DNA from: Ascidiella aspersa
Lineage: Eukaryota
DNA: 64,000 nt
NCBI GenBank assembly: GCA_963924565.1
Contig: OZ004610.1
Coordinates: forward strand, 27,404,001 to 27,468,000
Direction: 5' to 3'
Part shown: positions 846-57,808 of the stretch, one piece after another
Numbering within the stretch: the stretch's first letter is position 1
How the letters are laid out: each line of letters opens with the position of its first letter
The notes under the pieces: generated by a model
The model's input: only the letters and a program-made list of their open reading frames with translations
Databases searched by the model: none
Told to the model about the DNA's origin: nothing
Position numbers and translations under genes: made by a program

Positions 846-12975
<12,130 letters not shown>

Positions 12976-13005
<30 letters not shown>

Positions 13006-13202
13006 GCGGCCGGCGAAATTACGCGGCCCGGCGCCGTGCTGTAGAGCCCTATACCGGCCCGGTAATTTTTGCGAGTCGTTTAGGGCTGTTGTGACTAGTC
13101 ACTACTACCAGAACCAGATTCCCTACTACTGAACGGCCGGCGAAATTACACGGCCCGGTGCTGTGCTGTAGAGCCCTGTGCCGGCCCGGTAATTTTTGCG
13201 AG
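12976..13202 (+). repeat. 100-bp duplication of the PI4KA stop-codon region
   Basis: 12976-13075 is repeated at 13103-13202 with about 6 substitutions. Confidence 0.9.
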
Positions 13203-21000: not shown

Positions 21001-24000
21001 CCGGAGTGGTCTGGAAACGACCTCATGTGAGTTGACCAAGTCCCGATTGCAGTGTTGTAATGACTTAAGTCAATGACGTGACTTAATTGCACTTAAGTCA
21101 CTGTTTTCAAATGACTTGACTTGACTTAAGTCTTTGGGAAAATGACTTGACTTGACTTGACTTAAGTCTTCGGGACAGATGACTTGAGTTAAAGTAAAGT
21201 GTTTTCATTAAACATTTCTTTGTAAAATTGGGTTATTTATCCTAATATTTGCACGTAAAACAATTTGATTGCCCAATTACAAAACAATATTAGAAGCGCA
21301 ATATTTAATAGAACATAGTCATTTCCTTTGAGAATTTTTAAAGTGATAAATATTTTGTTTTAGAAAGAGTGATTATTTTTTTAATTGGCTGAAATTTCGT
21401 GATAATATTAGTTTATTTGTGAATAGGTTTTCAGCAGATTTACAAAAATACGTACAAGGAATTCACTTTTAAGAATATCAAAGCCCATACAGAAGTAGGA
21501 CATCAGATGTTGAAAATGAATAAAGAGTTATTCGAAACGTTCAAAATGATACCTACTTCTGTATGGGCTTTGATATCCTTATTAGGTCTTACTACAACCT
21601 CCAACCATTATGCTCCAAAGAATTCACTTTTATTTTAAAGAATTTTTTTTTATTACACTTAATTTTTTCTAGGTCTCTAGAAAGGGTTTATTGTAGGATG
21701 TCCGTAAGATAACACACGTGTTTACAACACGATATTAGCTGGTTAACAAAAGGTGCTCAAATATTTATCTTTTACGATTTTTGTAAATTTACCTTTGGTC
21801 AGTACCACACATAGGGTACCACTGTAAACACCCTATGTCTCTACCTTGGTCTTGTCTTAACTGATGTTTTTCTGCTTCAGGAATTCGTGAACGATGCTGT
21901 TTTAGTACACGGCTTCGGCAAAAACGACGTTGCCCAGGGTGACCTCGGAGATTGCTATTTCCTTGCCGCAGCAGCTGCGCTTGCGACAACTCCTAAGCTC
22001 CTGACCAAAGTATGCTTGCAGTTGTAAAACTGTATAATTAAATAACAAGATAAATTTTAGTTGACAGACGTATTTTTCCTATTTTGACCCTGATACACGG
22101 TTGTGCGAAAGCTCATCAAAAGTAAAATGCTATATAAACACTGCCACTTGTTTTCAATTAACAAATGAAAGCTATGAACGACGGTTTATAATTTTATTTA
22201 AAGCAAAGCAATAACAAACCACTGAAGTGCACTTGGGCACTGTTTTTAAATGACTTGACATGGAAAAAATAGCTTTTGGATTGATCGTTTTGTGCACATG
22301 ACTTGACTTAAGTCCTTGTGTCAAATTACTTGGGTTGAAATTACAAGTGTTTTTGTAAAATATTTCTTCGCAAAATTGTTTATTTTCATCTCAGTTTTTG
22401 GCACGAAAGCAATCAGCTTGCTATGTTGCGATGTCGTTATTTTTTAGTTGAACTATTTCTCATACATGGACGGTAAAAACTCGACTTGAACCCAAGTCAT
22501 TTCAAAATGACTTGGATTATCTTCTGTTATCTCTTATTTTTAATTAAACAACAAACTTATTTTCCTCTCGTTTTTCAGCTGATCCCTTCCAACCAAAAGC
22601 TGACCAAGGACGGCAAGGCTCCGGAGTACAACGGGATGCTGCAGTTCCGCTTCTGGCGCTTCGGACGCTGGGTGGAGGTTGTGGTGGACGACTACCTGCC
22701 CACCATGGCCGGCTACGGACTCATCTACGGCAGGAGCACAGACCCCCGGGAGTTCTGGGTCTCGATGGCCGAAAAGGCCTACGCCAAGTAAGTCGATGTT
22801 GCTTGGATACTATTGGGTTGTCCAATAATATTGTTTGGGAGCCAATATCCGATCCCAAGTGACGGTATTGATACGCCACCGATATTAGAGTGGTATTGCC
22901 GACATGATACCAAATTTATGTAGGAATTTCGGCAATGATTTGCGATTCAGCGCAATGATTTTCTAAGGTAATTTTTTTTTTATGTTTTAATAACAACTAA
23001 ATGTAACTCAACCTCTTTACGCTAAGGTAAATTTTGCCATGAAAATCTGGAAAATCGCTTTGAACGTTTCAATCGCTTCTTGTTTGCTGCATCTTAATGA
23101 CGTCATTTAGTATCGGATCTCGATGCTTTTTGTTCAAAATATCGTGTCTCGGTATTGAATTAAAATGTTAAGCGGATATTAATTGGATACTTACTTCTCG
23201 GGTGAAGTACAACTTTATGACACCTCACGTTTTCCTCGTTTGAATGTAGTCAGAAGACAATGTTTATATAAGTTAGAGGGTTTGGGTGAAATTAGTTTAT
23301 TTTATAAGTGGGAATAGATCCATTGCTTACACATTTATTACGACGCATTTATTAGCTTAACTATTTCTGAAAAAGCGACCAGGGTAATTTTAAGCGAAGT
23401 GTTACTTTTCGCGAATAATAATTAGTGACTTTTTGATGTTGCTGTACATAAACGTACCATGGATTTTCTAAAAAGACATTCCGAGATTAAATAAATGGAA
23501 TAGTTACCAAATATTTTTAGTGTAGCTCTAACGAGTGTTGAATTGATTTTTACTGACTTGACTTTTGCAAGAAACTTTCATTTTTTGCAGGGCAAACAGC
23601 GTTTTGTGATTAAGTGTAAGCCCCCCTTTTTGTATTGTTTTTTTAATTGTAAACGAATCTCAGTAAGTTCTTTGATGTTTTATCGAGATGGCAATGAAAC
23701 AGATAACTGATTTGTGATGCTATAACCTGACGTTGCAGGTTAAATGGGTCGTATGAGGCGCTGAACGGAGGACAGAACACAGAGACCCTCGAAGACATGA
23801 CAGGAGGCCTGGCGATTCAGTACATGATCAATAAGTCGGACAAGAACACCGTTTACAAGCGGATTGCAATGTTCGTGCTAATCTACCGCAGTACTCGATA
23901 AAAAACGTAAAATATTTTTTTAGCTGGACTAGATTTCTTTTCAGGCGATTAAAGAACGGGCTGATCATCCAAACCCAGTAGTCACAATCATTGTAATTTC

Positions 24001-27000: not shown

Positions 27001-29952
27001 TAAAAATAACCATAATAGACAAACAAAAATCATATTTGTATTTTTAGCGACAGCGCAAACAAAACCTATTTATCTCTAAATACTGTGTCCTGGTTGTTGC
27101 AGTTCCCAAATAAAAAATCTTCTATTTTACCAACATAACCTTGTTTTCAGTTGGCATCTTTCTACTGTACGTGGTCAGTGGCTGGAAGGAAAATCAGCTG
27201 GTGGATCGAGAAACAACCCGACGTTTGACACAAATCCGCAGTTTCTAATGCATGTTCTTGAACCGGGTACGTTTTTTTTTCACGCTTTGGAGGCAATACG
27301 CGCTAAACTAGAATATCGCAAACTTTCTTCTGGGTTCCGATATTATTGGGATGTTTGTGTTCAACAACAACAATTTGAGGAAAAAAGTTTAAGGTGCAAC
27401 TCGTCCGATAGCCTACTAGGGTGGTTTCGGTGCCGATTCGATATTTCTGTAGGAGCCATTATTTGCAATCAAACCAAGCGATTTCTGCCGTAAAAGGTCA
27501 ATTTACCAAAAAGCAGTAGGTTAACCACTTATCAGAAGACCACCTTAACCACTGCTGGGATTAATTAAATTTCCTAACTCTAAGGCAAACTAAGCCTAAT
27601 TACCTAAAAAAAATTATGTATTAATTTAAACGTTTTAATCGATCGGAAGGATCAACATATAACTTTTTCAATTAACCAAGAAAAATAGAGATAAAAATGT
27701 GCTCTTTTAGACGATCCTGTTGAAGAAGAGACCGAGGAGGGAGAAGAAGATATGACCAAGATGAGCTACGTCCAGGTGGGATTAATGCAGGAACACAGGA
27801 GAGTCGACAAGAAGACAGTCGTGCCCACCTACGGAATTGGGATGACCATCTTCAAGGTATTTTCACAGGAGACGACTTTCGTGGTTCCCAAAAAGGGAGG
27901 CCCAAAACATGGGTCGTTGCTGCGGCTCACTGGGGTACCATTTTTAGTTCTCAAGGGCGCCGAGAAGTATTTGGGAATCTTTAAAGGTTACTGATTTGAT
28001 AACTTATGATCCTATTGAAACACTCTTCGTGTAAGATTAGTGTACAATAAATAAAAGTTGTTGATTGTACTGTCCCAGTAGTGTTTACTGTGATCATACA
28101 GTAAAGCCTTTATGGTAGGGGTGCCGCAATCTATTAATTATTTACGGTTGGTGCCGCAAGCCATAAAAGGTTGGGACCACTGTCCGAGCCAACATGTAGT
28201 GTGGAGAAGCTTTTTCGGTGTTCTGTTATTGCGTCGTTTATTAACTGTTTTCCATACTAAATATAGCTTTTTGTAGAAGCTCAGTTCATTATATTACAGA
28301 TAAAGCTGAAATCGTTTATCACTTTTTGTTAGCAGAATCTAGAATAATTTTATACAAAATGATATAAAAAATTTCCTTCAAAATTTGGATTGTTATTTAT
28401 ATAAAAAAAAATTGGACAACAAGAGCCCACCACTGTGGTAAAACTTTTTTAGCATTAGATAACACGAGCATTTGGGGAATAATGGTAGGAGCTAGGAGGT
28501 TATAGTAAGACGTAGAAAGAACACCAAAGCCCATATAGAGGCATAGGTACGATTTGAAGCGTTTCGATTAAATCTTTATTTATTTTCAACTTCCTTAATT
28601 CACTTCGATGTTGAAAGTAAATAAAGAGAAACGTTAAAAAGTCTACCTATATAACAGGGGTGGTCAACCTACGGCCCGCGGGCCAGATCCGGCCCGCCAA
28701 CGCAAATCAGAAGGCATTCTTCGTATTTTCTGCTTATTTTAATTACCTAAAAGCATTTTTTTGTGCTTAGTTTAAATCTTGTTCCTCCATTAATTGTAAA
28801 TCGCAAAATACCCTAGTTTTAACTCTGCTTAACAGTCGTTGCGGTTGTTATAATAAGATGCGTACGGTCTACACTCTACAGAGTTGAAAGTTAACGGCCC
28901 GCAGAGACCTTTCTGGGTTTGATTTTGGCCCGCGACCAGAAAAATGTTGCCCACCCTTGCAATATAGCAGGGATGGCGAACCACTGTCCCGCGGATCACG
29001 AAGTGATCCACCACACATTTTTATTGACCCACTTGTATCTCTAGAAATATCGAAATGTTATTAATCATTTTCAGAAAAGTATAAATAAAAGAAATCAATT
29101 CTTTGTTAGATATCACTGTACTGTTTAAATCAGGGCTACCTAATCTGTGGGTTGTGCAAAAGTGTCCTAGGGGTAGAGGTATATTAACTGCACTTCAACA
29201 AATGCGTGCAGAAAAGCAGACAACTAAAAGCATTTTGTTTATCGCTGAAAAAGGGTGGCGATCCTGTAGAAAAATATAGAGCTCGCAGACTAAAAATTAT
29301 GAAAAACCTGGCTAAACCATGCTTGAAAAGCTTTCTGCCGAACTCCTCCAATTCCATAAAAAATGGTTAAGCATTTGTTAACTATTTAGGTTCGTATTAT
29401 CCGTGGGAATCCGAATTTGGAAATCGTCCAAAAACCTTAAATTACTAGCCCAAGCAATAACACTAAAACGACGCAGCAGCAAAGTTTTGCGTAAAATTAG
29501 AATATAGTTAAATATATGACCCACTTGTGCATTTTGTAAGAATTAAGGTCGTGTTTGTGATCCGTGCGATGAAAAGGTACGCGATCCCTGCTATATAGCC
29601 TACTTCTTTATATAGACTTTGCTATTCTTACTCCGCATGACAAGATATGTTTTAAACGCTTATATAAAAAAAACATACAAAGGCGTGAAATACAGTACCA
29701 ACACCTTCTTAAAATCTTTTTCAGCTGAATGCGAAGCGGGATACCAAACTGAATGCAACCGAGGTCCTTACAATCCCAACCGCCGCCGAAAACCGCTCGT
29801 TCGTTCAAACTCGTGAAGTTACTCTCACCGCTTCCGTCGAACCCGGATATTACGTCATCGTACCCGCCACCTTCAGCGCCGGAAAGTCGAGTTCATTTTT
29901 CCTGCGCGTCTTCACCGAGAAGCCGATCGAACTTACAGAGTTAAAAGGATAG
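18020..29952 (+). CDS. Calpain-family cysteine protease, about 534 aa, CysPc plus C2-like domain III, no penta-EF-hand. Exons: 18020-18130, 20880-21026, 21881-22009, 22579-22787, 23739-23870, 24391-24511, 25237-25328, 26104-26277, 27151-27266, 27711-27856, 29725-29952
   Basis: The catalytic triad motifs QGDLGDCYFLAA, GLVANHAYTVTG and RVRNPWG are intact. Also present: FRFWRFGRWVEVVVDDYLP, EKAYAKLNGSYEAL, and domain III motifs SAGGSRN..F.TNPQF and PGYYVIVPATF..FFLRVFTE. Exon lengths sum to 1605 nt. Exon 1 is inferred from an ATG plus a phase-0 GTAAGG donor and is less certain. Confidence 0.92.
21471..21619 (+). mobile_element. Fold-back element with a U3-A8 variant minimal hammerhead core at its tip (family C, copy 1)
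   Basis: About 29-bp inverted arms enclose TTGAAAA-T-GAATAA-agag-TTATTC-GAAACGTT (21510-21541). Flanked by the direct repeat gaattcactttta at 21459-21471 and 21620-21632. Confidence 0.7.
22082..22158 (+). ncRNA. Degenerate family D hammerhead copy
   Basis: ttttgac-cCTGAT-ACAC-ggtt-GTGC-GAAAGCTC-atcaaaa. The downstream tataaacactgccacttg resembles the right arm of the 33442 copy. Confidence 0.55.
28478..28592 (-). mobile_element. Degenerate family C copy
   Basis: The reverse complement reads gTTGAAAATaaataaagatttaatcGAAACGCT followed by a diverged arm and tail (ggaggttatagtaagac...caaagcccata on the plus strand). Confidence 0.6.
28655..29590. mobile_element. Two abutting hAT-type MITEs (28655-28959 and 28968-29590) sharing a target site
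   Basis: TIRs caggggtggtcaac / gttgcccacccttg and cagggatggcgaacc / ggtacgcgatccctg; three related 8-mers ctatataa, caatatag and ctatatag. Confidence 0.75.
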
Positions 29953-32357: not shown

Positions 32358-35115
32358 ATGACCACCGACAAGTTAAGCGAAGAGGAACAGGTGATGTTTC
32401 GGGAGGCCTTTAAGAAGTTCGACAAGGATGGAAGTGACGTAGTGAGCACTGATGACGTAGGAGCAGTGCTAAGAGCGGCCGGACAAGCACCAACCGAATC
32501 GGAGTGTGACGACTATAAAAAGGTAAGGCACAAGTGTAGCAGGGTCTGACGTTAGCACTATTTTTTTACTTGTTTTTGTTTGTTTTACAAAATAAAAGCG
32601 TTAAGGTGTAATTATTTTACCGTGCTTTATAAAGAGTGCAAAATGATTGAAAAAACACATTTTTCTACTATAAAATTCTTAACATTTGTAGTTTAATTCT
32701 GCAATGGTAAAGCGTGTTTTAATCGTTATTTTGCTTTCAAAATTCATATGGTTTAGAAAGCACAGGAAAATATTCTTTTCTAGCTATAATTATGAGGTGT
32801 TCTTGCGTAGTGTAAGAAAATGTTTTATAGGTGCAATTTGACTTGCTCGAAATTACAAAACCATAATTTAAAGTATATTGCAGCCCTAAAAGAATCTTTT
32901 GCAATTCACGCCAAGTTTGACGTTTAGATTTTTGTTTTCTGCACCAATTTGACAGTCGTAATCAAGCGTGCTAAAAATACAGAAGCTCGTACAAGTAAAT
33001 TATGGCCAAAATATAACTATGAGGTTAGTTTTTATGTTAATTTGCGCTTGGTGTTGACAAATATCAGGATCTATCGAGAAAACCGTCATAATGTTATACG
33101 TGACTTTTCTGGAGTTGGAAGTTATTATCAAAAGACATATCGGCAACAGCCGCAGACTATGAATACGTCAGTCTTCTACCGACATTTTGAACACCCGCAT
33201 TTCCTGCTGCTTTATAAAAAGTTAAACCAGCTTCATTTACACACTAAGGTCTATTGAATTATCCTTGCGTTTTCAGGAGTTGGACCCCAAGGATTCTGGC
33301 GATGTGGAATACAAGGACTTGCTCGATTTGTATTCTCGCATTATGAAATCAACCTACGAGATGGACGACGAACTTACAGAAGCCTTCAAGTGAGTATATG
33401 TTCTAACTTTATATATGGCCGTATTTGTCTAATTCTAAATAGAGGAATCAGGTGGAACTGTATAAAGACAAATTGTAAACTTTGACCTGATGAAGCACGG
33501 CTGTACGAAAGCTGCTCGAGAATTAAATACAATTTGTCTTTATACAGTGCCACCTGATTCCTCCATGCTCTAACTCAGTGCTTCTCGACCTATTGGTCGC
33601 GACCCAAAATTGGGTTGCTGTTAGATTTGGTTGGGTCGCCGACCGCAGCAATCACATGTTTATACTAATTGAGATTGGTTCTGAGAAGGATTTCTCAATT
33701 AAGAAAATTAAAGAAGCAATACAAATAATGTCTTATAATTAATTATTAAAATGTGAAATTCTTTATGATAATGCCTATTTTTTGTTCGCTTACAAGAAGC
33801 TAGTTTTTAGTTCGCTTACAAGAAAAAACAATTGGGTCGCCAAAGCTTAGTCGTCATACTTACGCCTAATATTTGGGTTGCCGCGAAAAAAGGTTGAGAA
33901 GCACTGCTCTAACTGATGCACTTCAGCAAAACTACTGTAACGTTTTGCATTAACATTTGTAAAAGTTACACCTAAAGCTAAATGCGAATTTCAACCCCTG
34001 AACTTTTCTATCTAGTGTTTGAGCCGCATAGCGCCTGGTATAGGTTACCATGGGCACATTTGTTCTAACACTCTTTTATATGCTTGGTTTCTGCTTTAGG
34101 TAAGCCTTTTATTAATGTCCTGTTCTAAGTGATAGTTAAATTTTAGGTATTTTCTATGGCCTTTATTTTTTTCTGTTACATGCCAAATAAATAGGCCCAG
34201 TCCTATTTTGGCTTTTTTAATATTGTATTGAATTATACTATTTGCGTTTAAAATGTCCAAACTTTGAAACCTGTTTGAATTTTAACAACATTAAAAGCCG
34301 TTTCTAGAAATGAAAGATTTGTACACATGTACAAGGTGATCGAGCCATTTTGAAGTCATTTTTGATTGACGACAACGGCTTACGTACCATATAAGCCTTT
34401 GACAAATTAACCTAATCTGTCCATCAAGATGCAAGAAAGACAGTGTAGAAAAACTTATAGGCTGTGGTGAGGTTCGAACTCATGACCTCCGGCCATACCG
34501 GGACCGTAATTCTACCGATAACTGCGTTCCACAGGCACAAAATGGAGCGAGTCGCACGTCGTGAAACACCCATGACACCATTGCTTGCCGCATCCTGGTA
34601 TCAAAAACAACAACTTCTAGAAACTAAGTTAATTAAACGTTACAGACTTGTAAGTTCTTCCCTAAGAGTCTCTTTTTTACGATTCCCCCAGAGTTTTGCT
34701 TGATCCAATTCTCAAGTCCGGTAGTAAATCAATAACAAGCTTTTAGCAAAAAATGAAACGACTCTCATCAACCTTCGTTTTTTTATACTTTAAATCAAGG
34801 GTTTCCAACCTTTTTTACACCGTGAAAAGTTTGATAAACCAATTCCCCCCAACCTAAAACCCCTTGGGGGTCATGGCCCACAGGTTGAGAACCCCTGCTT
34901 TAAATCGATATCTAAACCGCAAAAACGTCAGGGTTTTCGACAAGAACTTCGACGGTTACATCACAGCGGCCGATTTGCGTAAGCACATGACCACACTGGG
35001 AGAGAAGCTTTCTCAGGAAGAAGTTGAGGAAATGATAAAAGACGCCGATCCAAACGGCGAGGGAAAGATCAATTACACCGAGTTCAGCTACGCAATTATA
35101 CACGACAACACGTGA
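32358..35115 (+). CDS. Divergent calmodulin-like four-EF-hand protein, 153 aa. Exons: 32358-32522, 33277-33389, 34932-35115
   Basis: Translation [26 protein letters not shown]...[55 protein letters not shown] is colinear with calmodulin. EF1 and EF2 loops are degenerate; EF3 and EF4 are near canonical. Confidence 0.92.
33442..33563 (+). ncRNA. Hammerhead-like motif (CTGATGA...GAAA) at the tip of a 36-bp hairpin (family D)
   Basis: Arms 33442-33477 and 33528-33563 have one mismatch. The loop contains CTGATGA(33487-33493)-A-GCAC-ggct-GTAC-GAAA-GCTGCTC. Confidence 0.65.
33576..33906. mobile_element. hAT-type MITE
   Basis: TIRs cagtgcttctcgacc / ggttgagaagcactg; TSD ctctaact; a related copy lies near 5354-5550. 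Confidence 0.9.
34460..34536 (-). mobile_element. tRNA-derived sequence (SINE head or tRNA pseudogene)
   Basis: On the minus strand: ctgtgg...ccacag acceptor-like stem, A-box-like cgcagttatcggtag, and T-arm tgag-TTCGAAC-ctca. The anticodon arm is imperfect. Confidence 0.55.
34796..34897. mobile_element. Short hAT-type MITE
   Basis: TIRs caagggtttccaacc / ggttgagaacccctg; TSD ctttaaat. Confidence 0.85.
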
Positions 35116-39500: not shown

Positions 39501-42500
39501 TAAATTAGAAGTTTTTTTGTGGTTTCTGCTGGACATTTCAGTTATGTCGAAATGACCATTTGAAGCATATTCCATTACCTCGAGTTTGGTTCCGTAGGGC
39601 ACCGACTGAGGGGGGATTACAATGTCGGAATCGTTGGGCAAGTGAATGACTCCGTCGCCACCAGAACCCTTCCATTGCTTGTTGAAGTCGTGTCGGTTAA
39701 ATCTACGAAAATACGCAATAATATCTCGTAAATTGGGCAACGACGTAATGTCCTCATTTTGCAGAGATTGTTCTATTTTAATATTATCATCTGAAGACAT
39801 TAAATCATTTAACCACAAATATGTGTTCTAATTTAAGAGTAAATCTGCAAACTGAGAAGGGACAATCGTAAAACTTGTCCCTTTTCGGATAATAAAAATG
39901 AAATCAATAAACATGACAAACGATTACTTGTAATGCGGTTTATATAATTTTACACAAACAAACCGTAGTTTTTCAGAAACAATCCATATAAGGCAATTAA
40001 ATGACAAATTTATAATTTAAGCATAATGGTTGGAGGTTGTAGTAAGACTTAATAAGAATATCAAAGCCCATACAGAAGTAGGTATCATTGATGTTGAAAA
40101 TGAATAAAAGAGTTATTCGAAACGTCCAAAAGAATACCTACTTCTGTATGGGCTTTGATATTCTTATTACGTCTTATAATTTAACGTTTGACATTTTTTT
40201 TAAATCCTCGTAATTCGCGTATTAAATTAGTCTAGAAAAATGATCACTCACGGTGAGTGCAACTATGAAGAAGGATTATTTATGTGCAGCATTGACCGTT
40301 CATTTTAGACTTATGCTTTTTTAAATACATTCAATAATTTCAGTAAAGTGTGCAATGTGTTGTTACCCGTCGACATCCGTGTTGTAATTGTTGAAAGGGT
40401 TTCCTCCGTAAAAACTGTTTCCTCCTTCTGAGAACATCGAGAGTCTCGAAGATGCGCGTGACGTCATATATTGTTGCGAGGCTTCGGAACGGATCGTTCT
40501 CTCTGTTTGCAAAAAAAAACACATCAAGGATAAGGTGGAAAATAGATGTTTTTAACTTTGATAAAGTTTTTAACTTTGATAAAGTATGTCGCAATTTACT
40601 GACAAGAACGGGTACAAAGTGTGGCTGTCTAAAATCATGGACGTGTTTAAACACATATTTATAGTGAACTGGTATCGTACTTAACAAACACACGTAATAA
40701 GGGGAACAAATTTAGATTATTAGTGTTTAATTATGAAGAAAACTAGAAATATTTTACTTAAAACAGGGCCCTGTACAATGTTAAAATAGTTTGACAATTT
40801 TTAATTTTTTCTTAATAAAATCTCCATTACTAATTCGTGTTTGAATTAACATTGAACTAAAAAACAATTCCTGACAGGTAGAACATGACAGCCAAGTCCA
40901 CGATGTTACGTATTTTTGCTAAATGCATAGCAGTTGTATTTGATGGGCAAAACAACGCAGCACATTGCCTATTACATTGGTAACAAACAGCATTCGCCGT
41001 ATTTAACGATCAGTATATCGAGTTTCAAATCTAATTAGAGCACAGCGCCGAATGTTCCGGTAGCACTCTTATACCTTCAAGCTGTTTTTCCTCCCATAAC
41101 AGAATACCCCTGATCTCTTCAGTGGCAGCAACATCACTCGGTTTTCGTCCCTCCTTGTCACGTAAGCGAACCTGGAGAAAGGCTTGCTTTAGTGTCGTGT
41201 TGACAATTTCGAAGCACCCATAAACTTGGACTAAATCGCTCCCTAGAGTCGTTATTGCGCTGCGTCATTTTAGGGTGGAACAAACCGCATTCCATATTTG
41301 CCAAGTGCAAACGGAGAACGGCTACACGGGGCCACCTTTTTAGAATTGGATAGAATAATATACATATAGACAGAGATCCAATATTGTAATGACTTAAAAG
41401 TGCAGTTAAGTCACTGTTTTCAAATGACGTTTTAAAAATGACTGCTTACTATGTGTTGCACTTTAGGTACGTTATTGCTCGTAATTGTATAGTTACTAAT
41501 TTTAGAAGTTTGACGTTTAATGTTTATAACAAGGACTTGACTTGCTATAATTATGACTGACTCTGACATCACGATTTATTGAAAACGACTTGGACTTGAG
41601 TTAGTTAACAAATGACATGACTGGGTCTTAAGTTTTCAAAATGACTGCTTTACAACACTGCAGAGTTCTAAGAGGATAACAGTTCGCCACTTCACTCATA
41701 AACATTTAGTACCATACCCTGATTTTGTGACTCGGGGAATGACAGACTGGGTTTCTAGTGCAAACGATTAGTGTGTTAATCGTACCTCGATTACTTCGAT
41801 TACAACGGCCTTACCTTAGCGTGAAACTTTAAAAGAAGAAGAACGGATTTGTTTCCCGACCTAGAAGCAACGTGCAAGGCCGTTTCACCTGCAAAAACAC
41901 AATTTGTTAAATTTTATGACGCGCCACCGTGAACGGTAATCCGGTCCCACACAGTACAAACACCCGATCCGACTAACTGCTTAATTGGAAGCCTTCAAGT
42001 CGGGTTAAAATATTACTTATTCATCCTTTAAGCCGATAATTAAATATCTGCTAATCGACTTATTTAGATGATAAGGCCTAATGCGATCCTTTAATTATTC
42101 TCGACTTACTTGTGCTTATTTATTCGGCAATAAGGTAATGTTGCTCATGCATGGACACGAGTGTAAATTTGATGTTTCATGCGCAGTAAAAATAACGCAT
42201 CACATAAAGTGATTTGTTTTATAGCCTACACTCCTTATATTACGTCCATGCTTAAAACAAACGGAATGTTTCTTCATTGGTATATTTGAACACATTAACA
42301 CTGCAAGGTCAAGCAAAATCAAAAAGTATGTCACATATACTAGGCCTATATCGGCAGCGAAATCTTCATCCGTTACTTTAGAAAAAAATAACAGTACCTT
42401 TTTCGTTCTTCAAATTGGGGTTTCCCCCGAACCGCAGCAGTATGCCGGGGATCATGGGGTCGACCCCCCTGAAAGCGGCGCACAAGTGGAGTGCGGTGTC

Positions 42501-45500
42501 CCCCTCGAAATCGGGGATATTCGGGTCGGAGTCGGCAAGCAGAAGTGCCTCGATTATTTTCAGGTCGCTGCCGCCTTTTATTGCACTGCACAGAAACGCG
42601 ATTTAAATTAGGCCATATAACTTTTGTAGTAAAAAAAGTGAATCAAGAGAATGATTAGGTTTAAATTTTAAATACTAAAAGAAATGCAATAAATAGTCAT
42701 TAAAATTCATGCTAGAGATGTCCCATATTTCGTATTTTATCGTTTTACCTATACCCGATATTTTGTACTATAGGCCTACAAGCGACCGTGCAAAATTTCA
42801 TCAAATTGAAAACTTGTAAATGCTTTAGGGTTGTTAAGCAAAACAATGCTTTATAACGGGGAAACTTAGTTATCTTTATTGTATTAGATTTCATGAAACC
42901 GCCCAGTTAGATTGCGATGACTGAAATGCTTAAATTAACTATAGTTATCGGGTAAGCCACCCTACAGTTTAAGACGTTCGTACGAGTACCGCAATCCACT
43001 TGATTTCGGGTATCAAATATTATCGGAAATCCCCAATTCATACTATGACTTTTAGAAGGAAACGTTGAATGACTTAATATACTGGTGAATAAATAACGGT
43101 AACCAGTATAGAACAGCCACAAAAAGTCATATAATAGACACTATATTTTTTAGCTTAAATACACTGTGAGGACTAATGCAACACGTGGCGTCAATAAAAG
43201 TCAAAATGTATATATTTTTAAAATGTAATGGAGTTGCATTCGGGTTCTTTAAAAATGGTACAACAAGTTTTCTTAGTTTAGTGCATTAATTTTTAACGAA
43301 AACTTAAAAGTAAGAAACGTTCGTTTTCTGTATGCTAAGCGATGCTGGATGGTACCTGTGAAGAGCGGTTTGCCCTCTGCTGTTCTGGATCTTACAGTTG
43401 GGACCGGCATGTAATAAAGTCTGTACAACCCCTACGTTGTTGTAATAACCGGCGGCGAGGTGCAGTGCTGTGTTACCATCCTCGTCCGTGGCATCTGCAC
43501 AGAAACAAGCATTATTATACAGGGTGGGCCAAAAGTAGACTTACAGTTATTCCACAGCGTTGGCTTGGAAGAAGAGGTAGCATTAAATGGCCACGACGCT
43601 CACCTGACCTGACACCAGTGGATTTCTTTTTGGGGGGTGTTATAAAGAACAAGGTGTATGAGAAGAACCCCAAAACAATAAATTTACTTTTAGACCCAAC
43701 CCCTACTTTTTATAACTGTAAGCCTACTTTTTGCCCACTCTGTATATAATAGGTGGATAATGTTAACTTTATTACCTCTCAGAATGGAACGTTTTTGCCG
43801 ATGCTGAGGTCTAAACTTTGCTATATAACTGGGTAGGCAGGCGTTTTATCTTGAAAGCAAGTAGTGTGCCGGCGACGGCCGTTCGTTAATTTTTTTTTAC
43901 ATTTGATCTGTTTATCATTCCTAAATTCTACAAAATCTACGAAACACATATAGAGTAAATAATACGAATCGCAACAAAATTTAGGATATATCTTTAAGGG
44001 AGTAAACGGCCAAACATAAAAGTTGATTAACTAGGTTTTATAAGACGAAAAATCGCTTACATCAACGATCATATACGTTAGGTAAAACTCGACTCAACGT
44101 TAGTAGAAAGTATTTTTGATACAAGGTTGTCGGTGATCGTCGGTGGTCATAATAACATCACTACCAAAGCCTAATAGGTCGAGCTTTTTAACATTGTTTT
44201 TGTATGTAGGTTTGGATACATAGTTGTATTATAACTGATAAATACAAGTACGTATTGAAACGTTTTTTTTAAGATCACTTCGACTTACTCGAGGCTTTGG
44301 TATTCAGTTTTAAAGTGGTCGTTTTTTTCAAGACAAGACACTTGAAAACAAGCTTGTTACTCAAAGCATGTTGTTGTTTTCTGTAACACTGCTTTTTCAA
44401 ATGTCGATATAACAAACTTGCATCTAATCTAAACTGTTGACATCGGTTTATATTTTCCCGGGTTATATCCTGATCCTGAGGTCCGGAGTTTAATTTTACG
44501 CATATAAACTGACGGGTATTTTAGATTGCTCAGATTTTAGAATACTCAGGGGTCAGCAAACTTTTTTATAAAGAGCCGGTTAACTGTAAGGCCTGGCGAT
44601 TGCGGGCCGGATAATTTTTCGTGTCAAGCTTTATTAACTTAATTATCGTTAAACGAATGGAATTACAACCGCAAAAATTCCAACTTATTTTATTTTTATC
44701 AAGAAAAAGGGTAGCGGACCGGCAGAGTTTTTTTTAAGGTTTGGTTTGGGTGACCGCTAAGTAGTTTTAAGAGACCGCAAGGGTTTCATTTAAATACCAA
44801 AAAGTTGCAAGTCCAAAATTTGGGAAACCGCTGGAGAAATTTGGGGGACCGTTTTTTCAAAACACCTTAAAAAAACACTGCGGACCGGTGGAATTAACTC
44901 TACGGGCATTCTTACATGATATTACGACGAGGCAATCTGTGACGTCATTTATGAAAAATCCAAAGCCCCCAACAAATCCCTGAACCCGCCTTTGTCATAA
45001 CATAACCAATATTTCGCCTTTTTTACTCTTTTTTTTATGTTTGTGTTATTCGAAACGTACAAAAACGCTGCCCCGAACTTTGATATTCTTACTACTTCAA
45101 ACTACAACCTCCAGCCATTATCTTAAGATTTATTCGAAACTTAAAAAAATGCTGCCTAGGGCCCTAAGCTACTTCTGTATGAACTTCGATATTCTTACTA
45201 AGTCAAAACTGTGGCGCACGCTGGCCATAGTTTGGCGACCCCGGTTTAGCTTCAAACGTAAATCTGACTAGGACAACAAACAAAATCCTCCATTCACTCA
45301 CCGACGTCCTTCACGTAATCCAGCAGCTTGGTTAGCACGTCCACGTTGTTCTTGGTCTTGGCCGCCTGATGGAGCGACGTGCGCGACTTACGACCCCCCT
45401 GGGACAGGGGTCGGTTGGGGTTAGCCCCCTCTTTCAGCAGGTTACCCACTTCGGTCGCCTTCCCCTCCTCGGCCGCGTCGCTAAGCGCCTCATCGCGCTG

Positions 45501-47359: not shown

Positions 47360-47775
47360 AGTCCTGTTTTTGCCGTGATATATCAGTTCGCTAAACTCAA
47401 CAGCGCTAATACCTATTTGCGGACATAAAAAAACAAAGCTTTCTGGAAACGAAAATTTTCTTTTGGCACCATTCGAGTGTAGACTCTTTTAGCCTTCCTG
47501 ATCTGTTTACATACAGCCCCATGTGAATTCCTGTTTTCGCTATAAGCCTGTCTTCGGTTCGCCAAACTCAACAGCGCTAATACCCAATTGCGGCCATAAA
47601 AACAATGCTTTCTTGAAACAATCACTGTCTACTGGCAAGTGTTGTGTTTATCTTATTTTAGCCTTTCTGATCTGTTGTCAAGAAAACCACGTTTTAAATC
47701 CTGTTTTCGCCATAGGCCTGCCTTCGGTTCGCCAAACTCAACAGCGCTAATACCCAATCGCGACCATAAAAATCC
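47360..47775. repeat. About 170-bp tandem repeat, roughly 2.5 units
   Basis: tcctgtttt..gttcgccaaactcaacagcgctaatacc..cataaaa recurs near 47362, 47529 and 47699. Confidence 0.8.
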
Positions 47776-48579
47776 AGCGTCTTGTGGAAAGAAAAATTGT
47801 CTCCCGGCATGCCTGTGGCAAAACGCAAATAAACGAGGCGCTTTGGAGAGAGCCTGGCTAAGTTTGACTAGGAGGTGTGGTTATATTTCGCTCTTCTACG
47901 CTAAGTACACATGAATAGAAGGAATTGGTACAGGTGCGAGCCTATCTGAGCTGCTCATGGGTTTATAGCCGTAAACCTAACCCAGAAACAATTACTAAAT
48001 CCCCTTAACTCGTTAAGACAGTAGCAAAGTTTTAGCACGCAGCTTTAATGATAGTAACGTGTTTCATTTTTGTTTTGTATCTCACCAATTACAAAAACAT
48101 AACAAATAATTGCGCATGTGCTGCGATGTCCACTAACACTGCCTTAAGCACAACTTACTCTAAATTTTACTCTTGTCTTTTGCCAATGAATTACTTACTA
48201 TTCGTCATATTGAAATCTGATTTGATTTTGAGAGATTTACGTGTAAAAGTAGTAACATTTTTTTTTAACCGCGTCTACTGTTTTAGGAGTTAAACCTTTT
48301 CGACTACTATTGAATGGAATAAAGCCGACACAGTCGAAGTTAATCAGGTTGTCAATGACATTTCTTGGCCTAAATCTCATTAGTCTAATTTACAGACAAC
48401 GTTCCTACCAACTTTTTTTACAAACAACCCTTCATCGTTCCAGTGAAAAGACCACATTCCAACCCAAGTCATTTGTCCGAAAGACTTAAGTCATGGCAAG
48501 TCGTTTGTCCAAAAACTTTAGTTAAGGCAAGTCAGTTTACCAAATATATATTAAGTCAAGTTAAGTCATTACCTTAAGT

Positions 48580-56997: not shown

Positions 56998-57169
56998 GTA
57001 AGTGATTTTATTAGCTTTTAAAGTGTTCGTTGTCGAAGTTTTTTGTTTCTAATACATTAAGAACTTGGGAAGTGATTTCCTTTTTCGATCATTTAAATTT
57101 TAACTAGGTGTATAAATTGTTCGTATTGCCTTCGCTTATATTATCTAGTTTGCCCATAGGAGATCTGGG

Positions 57170-57808
57170 GGCGCTGGTCTAGAATCCTACCACAGTTCTA
57201 AAATCAACGCACAAAATTTGAGTTAGGGTGCGGGTTAGCGTTCGGTTGTGGGTGGGTCAAGTATTATTATATTCTTTGTTTAATAATAATACTTGACCCA
57301 CCTCAACCCAAACGCTAACCCTAACCCAAATGGTGTTTCGTTGTGGTAGGATTCTAGACCAGCGCCGATCTGGGCGCTGGTCTAGAATCCCGTCAAATTT
57401 TTGTCTGGGGGTTTATATTACTAACATTGTTTGGTTCATGTTGGGTCAAGTGTTACTTTATATATTACCCTATATTTATTTGTTTTTTGCAATTTCATTT
57501 TTGACAACTCGTTTTCGTTAAAAAAGAAGTGACCAGCGCCACTCGTTTTGTTATTTCTGAAATAAATGTAGTAGGATTCTAGACCAGTGCTGTCAAGTGT
57601 CAGTAGCACCTCGCCAACTAGTTGGTTTAACTATAATTTTGTGGTGGGGCCCTGGTCTAGAATTGTACCACAACGAACATTTAAGGGTGGCGGTTTGTTT
57701 GGGTAGGCTAAGCAATATTATTAATTAATAAACCAACACTCAAACCCAAATAATGTGCCTTGCTTTAATAATTGTATCAATGCTATGGTAGGATTCTAGT
57801 ACAGCGTG
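57170..57808. mobile_element. Cluster of three related fold-back elements with GCGCTGGTCTAGAATCCTACCAC termini
   Basis: The copy at 57170-57366 is a long palindrome with TTAGGG/CCCTAA-like motifs; diverged copies lie at about 57373-57591 and 57651-57808. Confidence 0.75.

Follow-up and report, generated by a model that had tools for sequence, protein, structure and literature searches.

Within the 64,000 nucleotides of Ascidiella aspersa DNA analysed here (the window), two short inverted repeats at 40010 and 21471 carry the same hammerhead-like core and appear truncated on opposite sides, raising the question of what kind of element leaves mirror-image copies of itself. An earlier note on this DNA took the full element to be a perfect hairpin of roughly 70 bp, cut back asymmetrically during insertion in a manner reminiscent of Penelope-like elements. 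The reading favoured here, with a probability of about 0.72 for the whole, is that a Penelope-like retrotransposon (PLE), of which an intact 840-aa RT plus GIY-YIG copy lies elsewhere in the genome, left 40010-40184 as a non-coding mini-insertion, likely formed from two cDNAs primed on one cut and joined head to head. It is one among at least several hundred short insertions of PLE debris in this genome.

Layout of the insertion

The two-arm mini-insertion spanning 40010-40184 consists of two copies of the start of a PLE reading frame, ~80 and ~110 bases long and placed head to head, with TSDs directly flanking both ends. Its features and those of the sister insertion are given below in unit numbering, in which r0 is the first base of the hammerhead core.

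40010-40020, left TSD, 11 bp, TTATAATTTAA, repeat of 40174-40184
40021-40089, minus strand, inverted arm with tail, r103/104 down to r35, without the core (alignment to the intact copy L198)
40021-40047, minus strand, Penelope 'tail', about r78-r104, ~5 nt short of the usual r108-109 end (alignment; tail concept as described in PMC11167929 and PMC8557442)
40090, plus strand, junction G, non-parental (T in the parent), likely a copied cap or an RT-added base
40091-40173, plus strand, tail-less forward arm, from r-3, where the parent ORF has its first ATG, to ~r78; 1 nt inserted in loop II (alignment to L198)
40092-40128, plus strand, minimal type-I hammerhead motif, predicted (read by the description in PMC4209133)
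40094-40100, plus strand, U3-A8 core
40101, plus strand, extra U
40102-40107/40113-40118, plus strand, stem II, 6 bp
40119-40122, plus strand, GAAA
40122-40125, plus strand, palindromic ACGU
40124-40126, plus strand, GUC triplet
40174-40184, right TSD, 11 bp, TTATAATTTAA (read from the sequence)
21459-21631, plus strand, sister insertion in mirror configuration with a GUU triplet (sequence and alignment to L198)
21459-21470 and 21620-21631, sister TSD, 12-13 bp
21470-21499, sister short inverted arm, r71-r42
up to 21506, sister junction insert, 7 nt, last base G at 21506
21507-21620, sister forward arm with tail, r-3 to r110

The core at 40010 closes with GAAACGTC at 40119-40126, ending in the GUC triplet, and has the same orientation as the core at 21510, which reads GAAACGTT; the earlier note had described both this arrangement and the 11-bp TSD correctly. 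Its placing of the distal segment also holds, on the left at 40010 (from 40021) with the complement on the right in the 21471 copy (to ~21619), such that the first is tail-left, short-right and the second short-left, tail-right. In a repeat search of the window 40020-40089 pairs with 21545-21614 (70 nt, 97%). The two copies are mirror images because of the known optional PLE tail, not because a symmetric hairpin was truncated. Folding is far above chance in both (z = -12.8 and -9.8 against shuffles for the 40010 and 21471 copies), the stem within the 40010 copy being ~43 bp and the 70 nt of the proposed hairpin being the length of the left arm.

The unit and its parent element

A search of the genome (308 Mb, 75 contigs) with the 40010 copy yields about 1600 first-look candidates, and the 31-nt core has 774 exact genome matches against 0 for a reversed control. 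At related loci the right-hand sequence recurs in reverse complement as the left arm, which reaches inward to a variable extent and often across the entire core. The unit is therefore linear and ~113 nt long, the apparent hairpin being two unit copies head to head. Some copies continue upstream to a TATA-bearing region and then RT and GIY-YIG coding sequence; 219 candidates have an upstream pLTR and a search with the 5' part of the ORF finds 13 candidates genome-wide.

The parent copy L198 (G000:C3:10.337 Mb) has at L198:1382-3904 an uninterrupted 840-aa ORF of which the first ~37 codons are the unit. This single ORF encodes RT followed by a C-terminal GIY-YIG domain, as in EN+ PLEs, with matches to PF00078 at residues 406-553 (E=2e-9) and to PF01541 at 742-779 (E=7.4e-4, 20.2 bits, under the 22.6 gathering cut-off). 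Of 7997 candidates scored against it, 1394 are relatives at E<=1e-30, and a PDB sequence search with it gave 0 matches at E<=0.01. Pseudo-LTRs are present as direct repeats flanking L198, L199 and L201 and in a tandem array on C9 with a 2671-bp period, and inverted 5'-truncated copies occur at 90 of 118 core-selected loci and in the long insertions L122, L123, L125 and L197. The parent is thus a canonical endonuclease-bearing PLE, and the 40010 family is a new PLE family with a layout already known for PLEs. It is likely of the Poseidon type, as judged from the position of an ATG where hammerhead stem II begins and from a linker that is not Cys-rich, with one Cys by eye (clade criterion as described in PMC8557442). 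The likeness to Penelope-like elements drawn in the earlier note is therefore upheld, the asymmetry being a PLE signature, and its ~70-bp perfect hairpin gives way to the linear 5' end of a PLE ORF.

The C9 array (L196/L197, G000:C9:23.485-23.496 Mb) comprises about four PLE units, every one of which shares a private stem II change with the inverted terminal arm; frameshifts or early stops interrupt the units seen. Of the two structures for which the earlier note had proposed a search, tandem arrays are represented by these PLE units, and symmetric copies with two long ends were 1 of the 79 classifiable two-arm loci selected by the core.

The closest comparison is with PAc, the Poseidon element of Anolis carolinensis, for which the following features of the 40010 family are also described: an RT with GIY-YIG at the C-terminus, hammerhead stem II beginning with an ATG, two positions of genomic ends that bound a 30-40-nt tail, AT-rich targets and tandem arrays (PMC11167929). 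Counted from the first ATG the distal end of the 40010 family lies at ~113 nt, and from the second at ~104 nt; in PAc, in which the hammerhead core is C3-G8 instead of U3-A8, it lies 111-118 nt into the ORF (PMC11167929). The main text on PAc describes neither a strict one-tail rule nor an added 5' G, nor head-to-head products of ~110 nt in their hundreds (PMC11167929). Insertions of Pen2a_Av and other EN+ PLEs are described with an inverted 5'-truncated pLTR, a tail at one end only on either side, a TSD of ~8-12 bp and a pLTR containing a TATA box and the first ORF codons, all as in the 40010 family (PMC3846280, PMC8557442). Unlike these, most 40010-family insertions have no ORF body, and their start is the ATG, which leaves out the TATA box above it.

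Outer ends, tail and TSDs

Two sets of loci were selected by an exact match to the core, a criterion that requires one arm to extend to r0 and is biased towards young copies. Set A started from 97 core matches on C1, reduced to 86 loci by merging both-core pairs and to 78 by excluding seven segmental duplicates (L090, L131-L134, L160, L170) and one long insertion (L126). Set B comprised 40 GTC loci on C2-C3 taken in listed order; within it L220 duplicates L219, and was counted in the end-class tally and left out of the TSD/end-position and junction tallies. Minis also lie inside segmental duplications at L089, L090 and L131-L134 (six copies on C1, 5.9-6.15 Mb) and at L114 and L118-L120 near contig ends on C2, C3 and C5.

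Of the 118 core-selected loci, 90 are two-arm loci, and in the other 28 an inverted arm was not detected. A single tail, carried by one arm or the other, was found in 76 of the 79 classifiable two-arm loci (50/53 on C1 and 26/26 on C2-C3, one of the latter a duplicate), the exceptions being one locus with two long ends and two with two short ends (p=2.7e-19 against independent ends). A both-tail copy with a TSD, L053, was seen among the query-selected loci. With asymmetric ends in 76/79, the family does not consist mostly of symmetric copies with fixed ends, which would have made the two window copies ordinary later deletions.

Mapping the left and right ends across copies, as the earlier note had suggested, places the outer ends in two clusters ~32 nt apart, at r~109 and r~75-77. 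In the 52 of 117 loci that passed the anchor and TSD filter, the first TSD base fell at r106-111 in 48 and the short end at r69-82 with modes at r77 and r75; the TSD was 12 bp in 23 of the 52 (range 10-18 bp, 75% AT). The ~32-nt difference is the known PLE 'tail', a 30-40-bp extension described at either end of PLE insertions (PMC8557442, PMC3846280) and, in PAc, as the span between two RT start sites (PMC11167929). The 40010 family thus has the 30-40-nt tail on one end only and the short variable TSD in AT-rich DNA expected of EN+ PLEs. The 2.5-kb L123 insertion and the ~11-kb C9 array likewise combine a tailed end with a short one, and each has a TSD of ~12 bp. The earlier proposal that asymmetry arises during insertion stands, with TSDs abutting both ends and mirror images occurring; the outer ends are two recurring positions and not random truncations.

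Overlap between target and template averaged 2.1 nt on the tail side and 1.6 nt on the short side against shuffle means of 0.56 and 0.42, values inflated by the search for the longest TSD, which the null ignores. Microhomology of ~2 nt is suggestive only, and differs from PAc, for which priming is described as non-homologous (PMC11167929).

Junctions and 5' starts

The inner junctions range from r-18 to r92, with both arms reaching to within 10 nt of the core start in 52/90 two-arm loci and arms often far exceeding 70 nt. Among 81 two-arm minis 77 distinct junctions were found, the sole junction seen more than twice being a perfect palindrome (4 loci), and therefore no palindromic master is being copied. 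In 41/78 loci of set A and 27/40 of set B the forward arm started with the A of the first ATG (r-3), and in a further 7 and 1 at r-5. A G precedes these starts in 51/76 (34/48 and 17/28; p=1.9e-9 against 1/3), where the parent has T; it also precedes 10 of 12 solo copies that start at r-3, and both window copies carry it, at 40090 and 21506. Between the TATA box and r-3, downstream of it, are 25-32 nt, a spacing judged against the typical TATA-to-start distance.

The non-parental G suggests a copied mRNA cap, with a C added by the terminal-transferase activity of RT explaining it equally well. We infer that the parent mRNA is capped and that its 5' end lies close to the first ATG, at r-3 or in some cases r-5, at this spacing from the TATA box. 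Such a start would put the priming site only ~113 nt from the 5' end, and would therefore account for the excess of minis over long copies. In L202:1061-1846 (G000:C2:23.3915-23.3923 Mb) sequence from the first ATG to ~670 nt inside the ORF is fused to a second r-3..r109 unit with a G before both starts, which suggests a template jump. RNA run X6, from an organism that shares about half of the sampled words and may be another species, had no pile of molecule starts among the 2379 reads on this stretch, mostly partial alignments, and loose read ends at r109, r75-77 and r-3.

One cDNA or two

The sequence of events proposed would begin with a staggered cut of ~12 bp at the target, on whose two strands two cDNAs would be primed at two internal sites on the RNA. 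With the priming site ~113 nt from the RNA 5' end, RT would run off the capped end with a G added. As two same-sense cDNA ends cannot anneal, they would be joined head to head by trimming, microhomology or short templated inserts, and since the arm that is trimmed would vary between events, mirror-image insertions would follow. Lacking a promoter, the minis would be by-products that lead no further. The formation of inverted repeats and one-sided tails is described as unresolved for PLEs (PMC8557442, PMC11167929); the Poseidon protein PAc is reported to nick and extend both strands, with RT starting at two internal sites bounding the tail, and is predicted to be a dimer (PMC11167929).

Two sets of observations bear on the number of cDNAs. 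Firstly, the tail arm is trimmed to r10 or beyond with the short arm keeping the core in 26/60 two-arm loci on C1 and 4/30 on C2-C3, the reverse being seen in 5 and 3. Neither arm contains the other in this tail-arm-trimmed class, which includes 40010, such that simple fold-back needs an extra deletion step, and the trimming (26/60 on C1) argues for two primed cDNAs over simple fold-back. Secondly, the two arms were compared in 107 pairs, query-selected loci included. At r31, the GTC/GTT position, they were concordant in 42/44 (19 discordant expected if independent) and they shared 16 rare variants against 2.5 expected; both arms therefore go back mostly to a single RNA or a single source locus, or became alike through later homogenisation. 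At r39 they were discordant in 11/65 where 3.3 were expected from a 5.0% background. Two RT events on RNA of one source are the simplest reconciliation and fit the extension of both strands and the predicted dimer of PAc. Templating of the arms by two independent RNAs from the whole pool was also considered and is ruled out by the concordance at r31.

The most durable alternative keeps the PLE origin and has a single cDNA fold back by self-priming, with the junction shaped by later trimming or deletion at the hairpin tip. Self-priming has been proposed for PLE inverted junctions (PMC3846280), the concordance at r31 and the shared rare variants are what fold-back would produce, and 30 of 39 junction inserts of at least 7 nt hold a 6-mer from the first 18 nt of the unit (a bare count without a control). 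It is nevertheless unlikely, in that 30 of the 90 two-arm loci including 40010 have a tail arm that lacks the 5' part and another arm that lacks the tail, in that the discordance at r39 exceeds its expectation, and in that PAc extends both strands in vitro (PMC11167929).

Returning to two primed cDNAs, a fuller version can be put forward tentatively, at a little short of even odds. A dimeric enzyme would prime both strands of the 12-bp cut in one event, one strand always using the distal RNA site and the other the proximal; the template would be capped mRNA, and most insertions would be pairs of run-off cDNAs ending in the cap G, making the minis a natural record of the PLE insertion mechanism. 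In the open-access literature searched, a twin-priming rule, cap copying, a near-strict one-tail rule with counts and an added-G 5'-end pile-up were not found stated for PLEs. The hundreds of young minis together with an intact parent ORF form a data set for testing the one-tail rule, the cap-G idea and twin priming against fold-back.

At the r39 site (window ~40134) A has changed to C repeatedly, with GTC as well as with GTT copies affected and often just one of the two arms, and the change is present in 468/940 first-mate-plus reads of RNA run X6. It may be a recurrent site of RT error or mutation.

The hammerhead motif and its triplet

By hammerhead numbering the 40010 motif has U3-A8 in place of C3-G8 and an extra U after A9. 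The core nucleotides, stem II, palindromic stem III and NUH triplet agree with a predicted minimal type-I hammerhead, with helix I being only 2 bp (third position A-A) instead of 4-5 bp; Rfam gave no match within the window at gathering score. Metazoan PLE hammerheads are described as minimal motifs of low activity with no helix III, a palindromic 15.2-16.2, an extra nucleotide between 9 and 10.1, G10.1-C11.1 and covariant U3-A8, including the Schistosoma Cercyon U3-A8 variant, and as occurring in many dispersed truncated copies and opposite-strand pairs (PMC4209133). The 40010 motif resembles them in each of these structural features, and its family in the dispersal and pairing; it differs in the 2-bp helix I, as in the D. 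virilis variant (PMC4209133), and in having GUU in two thirds of exact cores.

GUC, which the earlier note called the preferred triplet, is present at 40010 and is the minority form in the genome (249/774 exact cores). The full-length copies examined have GUC and the long 5'-truncated copies mostly GUU, and GUC is a subfamily marker rather than evidence of an active ribozyme; by this triplet 40010 belongs to the same subfamily as the intact ORF. Inner ends at r31-33, beside the predicted cut, are found in 5/34 (p=0.026, uncorrected), a weak excess. Cleavage by the hammerhead as the source of the main 5' end was considered and is ruled out, the starts piling up at r-3.

The triplet also enters the proposal that the minis propagate themselves as a non-autonomous family comparable to SINEs or retrozymes, templated by their own hammerhead-released transcripts. 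In its favour are the ~1600 first-look candidates against 219 with an upstream pLTR and 13 with the ORF 5' part, the presence of minis in RNA reads (run X6, possibly another species), the predominance of GTT where full-length copies examined are GTC, and the uncorrected excess of inner ends at r31-33. The proposal is improbable given that 77 of 81 junctions are unique, that the main 5' end, r-3, precedes the ribozyme instead of coinciding with the predicted cut, that the minis have no TATA box and a helix I of just 2 bp, and that head-to-tail tandem arrays of minis are not dominant in the sample; long 5'-truncated GTT copies with a TATA box exist and could be the GTT sources. Non-LTR retrozymes, described as short, non-coding, hammerhead-bearing and PLE-derived like the minis, are head-to-tail tandem units with a hammerhead in each, whereas the minis are head-to-head pairs with unique junctions (bioRxiv 10.64898/2026.07.22.740005). 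Assignment to this class was rejected, as head-to-head pairs and solos dominate, beside a few multimers (L048, L166).

A fixed symmetric ~70-bp hairpin element or MITE, truncated on one side at insertion or deleted later, is very improbable, for although every copy folds as a long hairpin and L053 has both tails and a TSD, the unit belongs to an RT ORF as its 5' end, both-tail copies are 1/79, the inner junctions vary from r-18 to r92 and the same end rule holds in 2.5-kb and ~11-kb insertions. Classification as a MITE or fixed hairpin was likewise rejected, symmetric terminal inverted repeats with a shared interior being absent where ends are asymmetric in 76/79 and 77 junctions are distinct in 81. 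The minis are ordinary PLE debris that could be mistaken for a MITE or a hairpin RNA gene in repeat annotation.

Other repeats in the window

Older, diverged relatives of the 40010 family lie at 28470-28640 and 45040-45206, one a head-to-head pair with a long tail arm and one an apparent head-to-tail pair. Another inverted-arm element at 33439-33566, probably from a different PLE family, has arms of 39 bp (95%) that enclose a hammerhead-like core of the canonical form CTGATGA...GAAA. Short tandem arrays occur at 6393-6757, 9133-9278, 12973-13202 and 47383-47809 with periods of ~109, 73, 127 and 170 nt, and dispersed or inverted repeat families that look MITE-like are present at 5387-5542/33600-33874, 17567-17886/27915-28175, 21103-21207/22296-22341/48444-48507 and 57168-57677.
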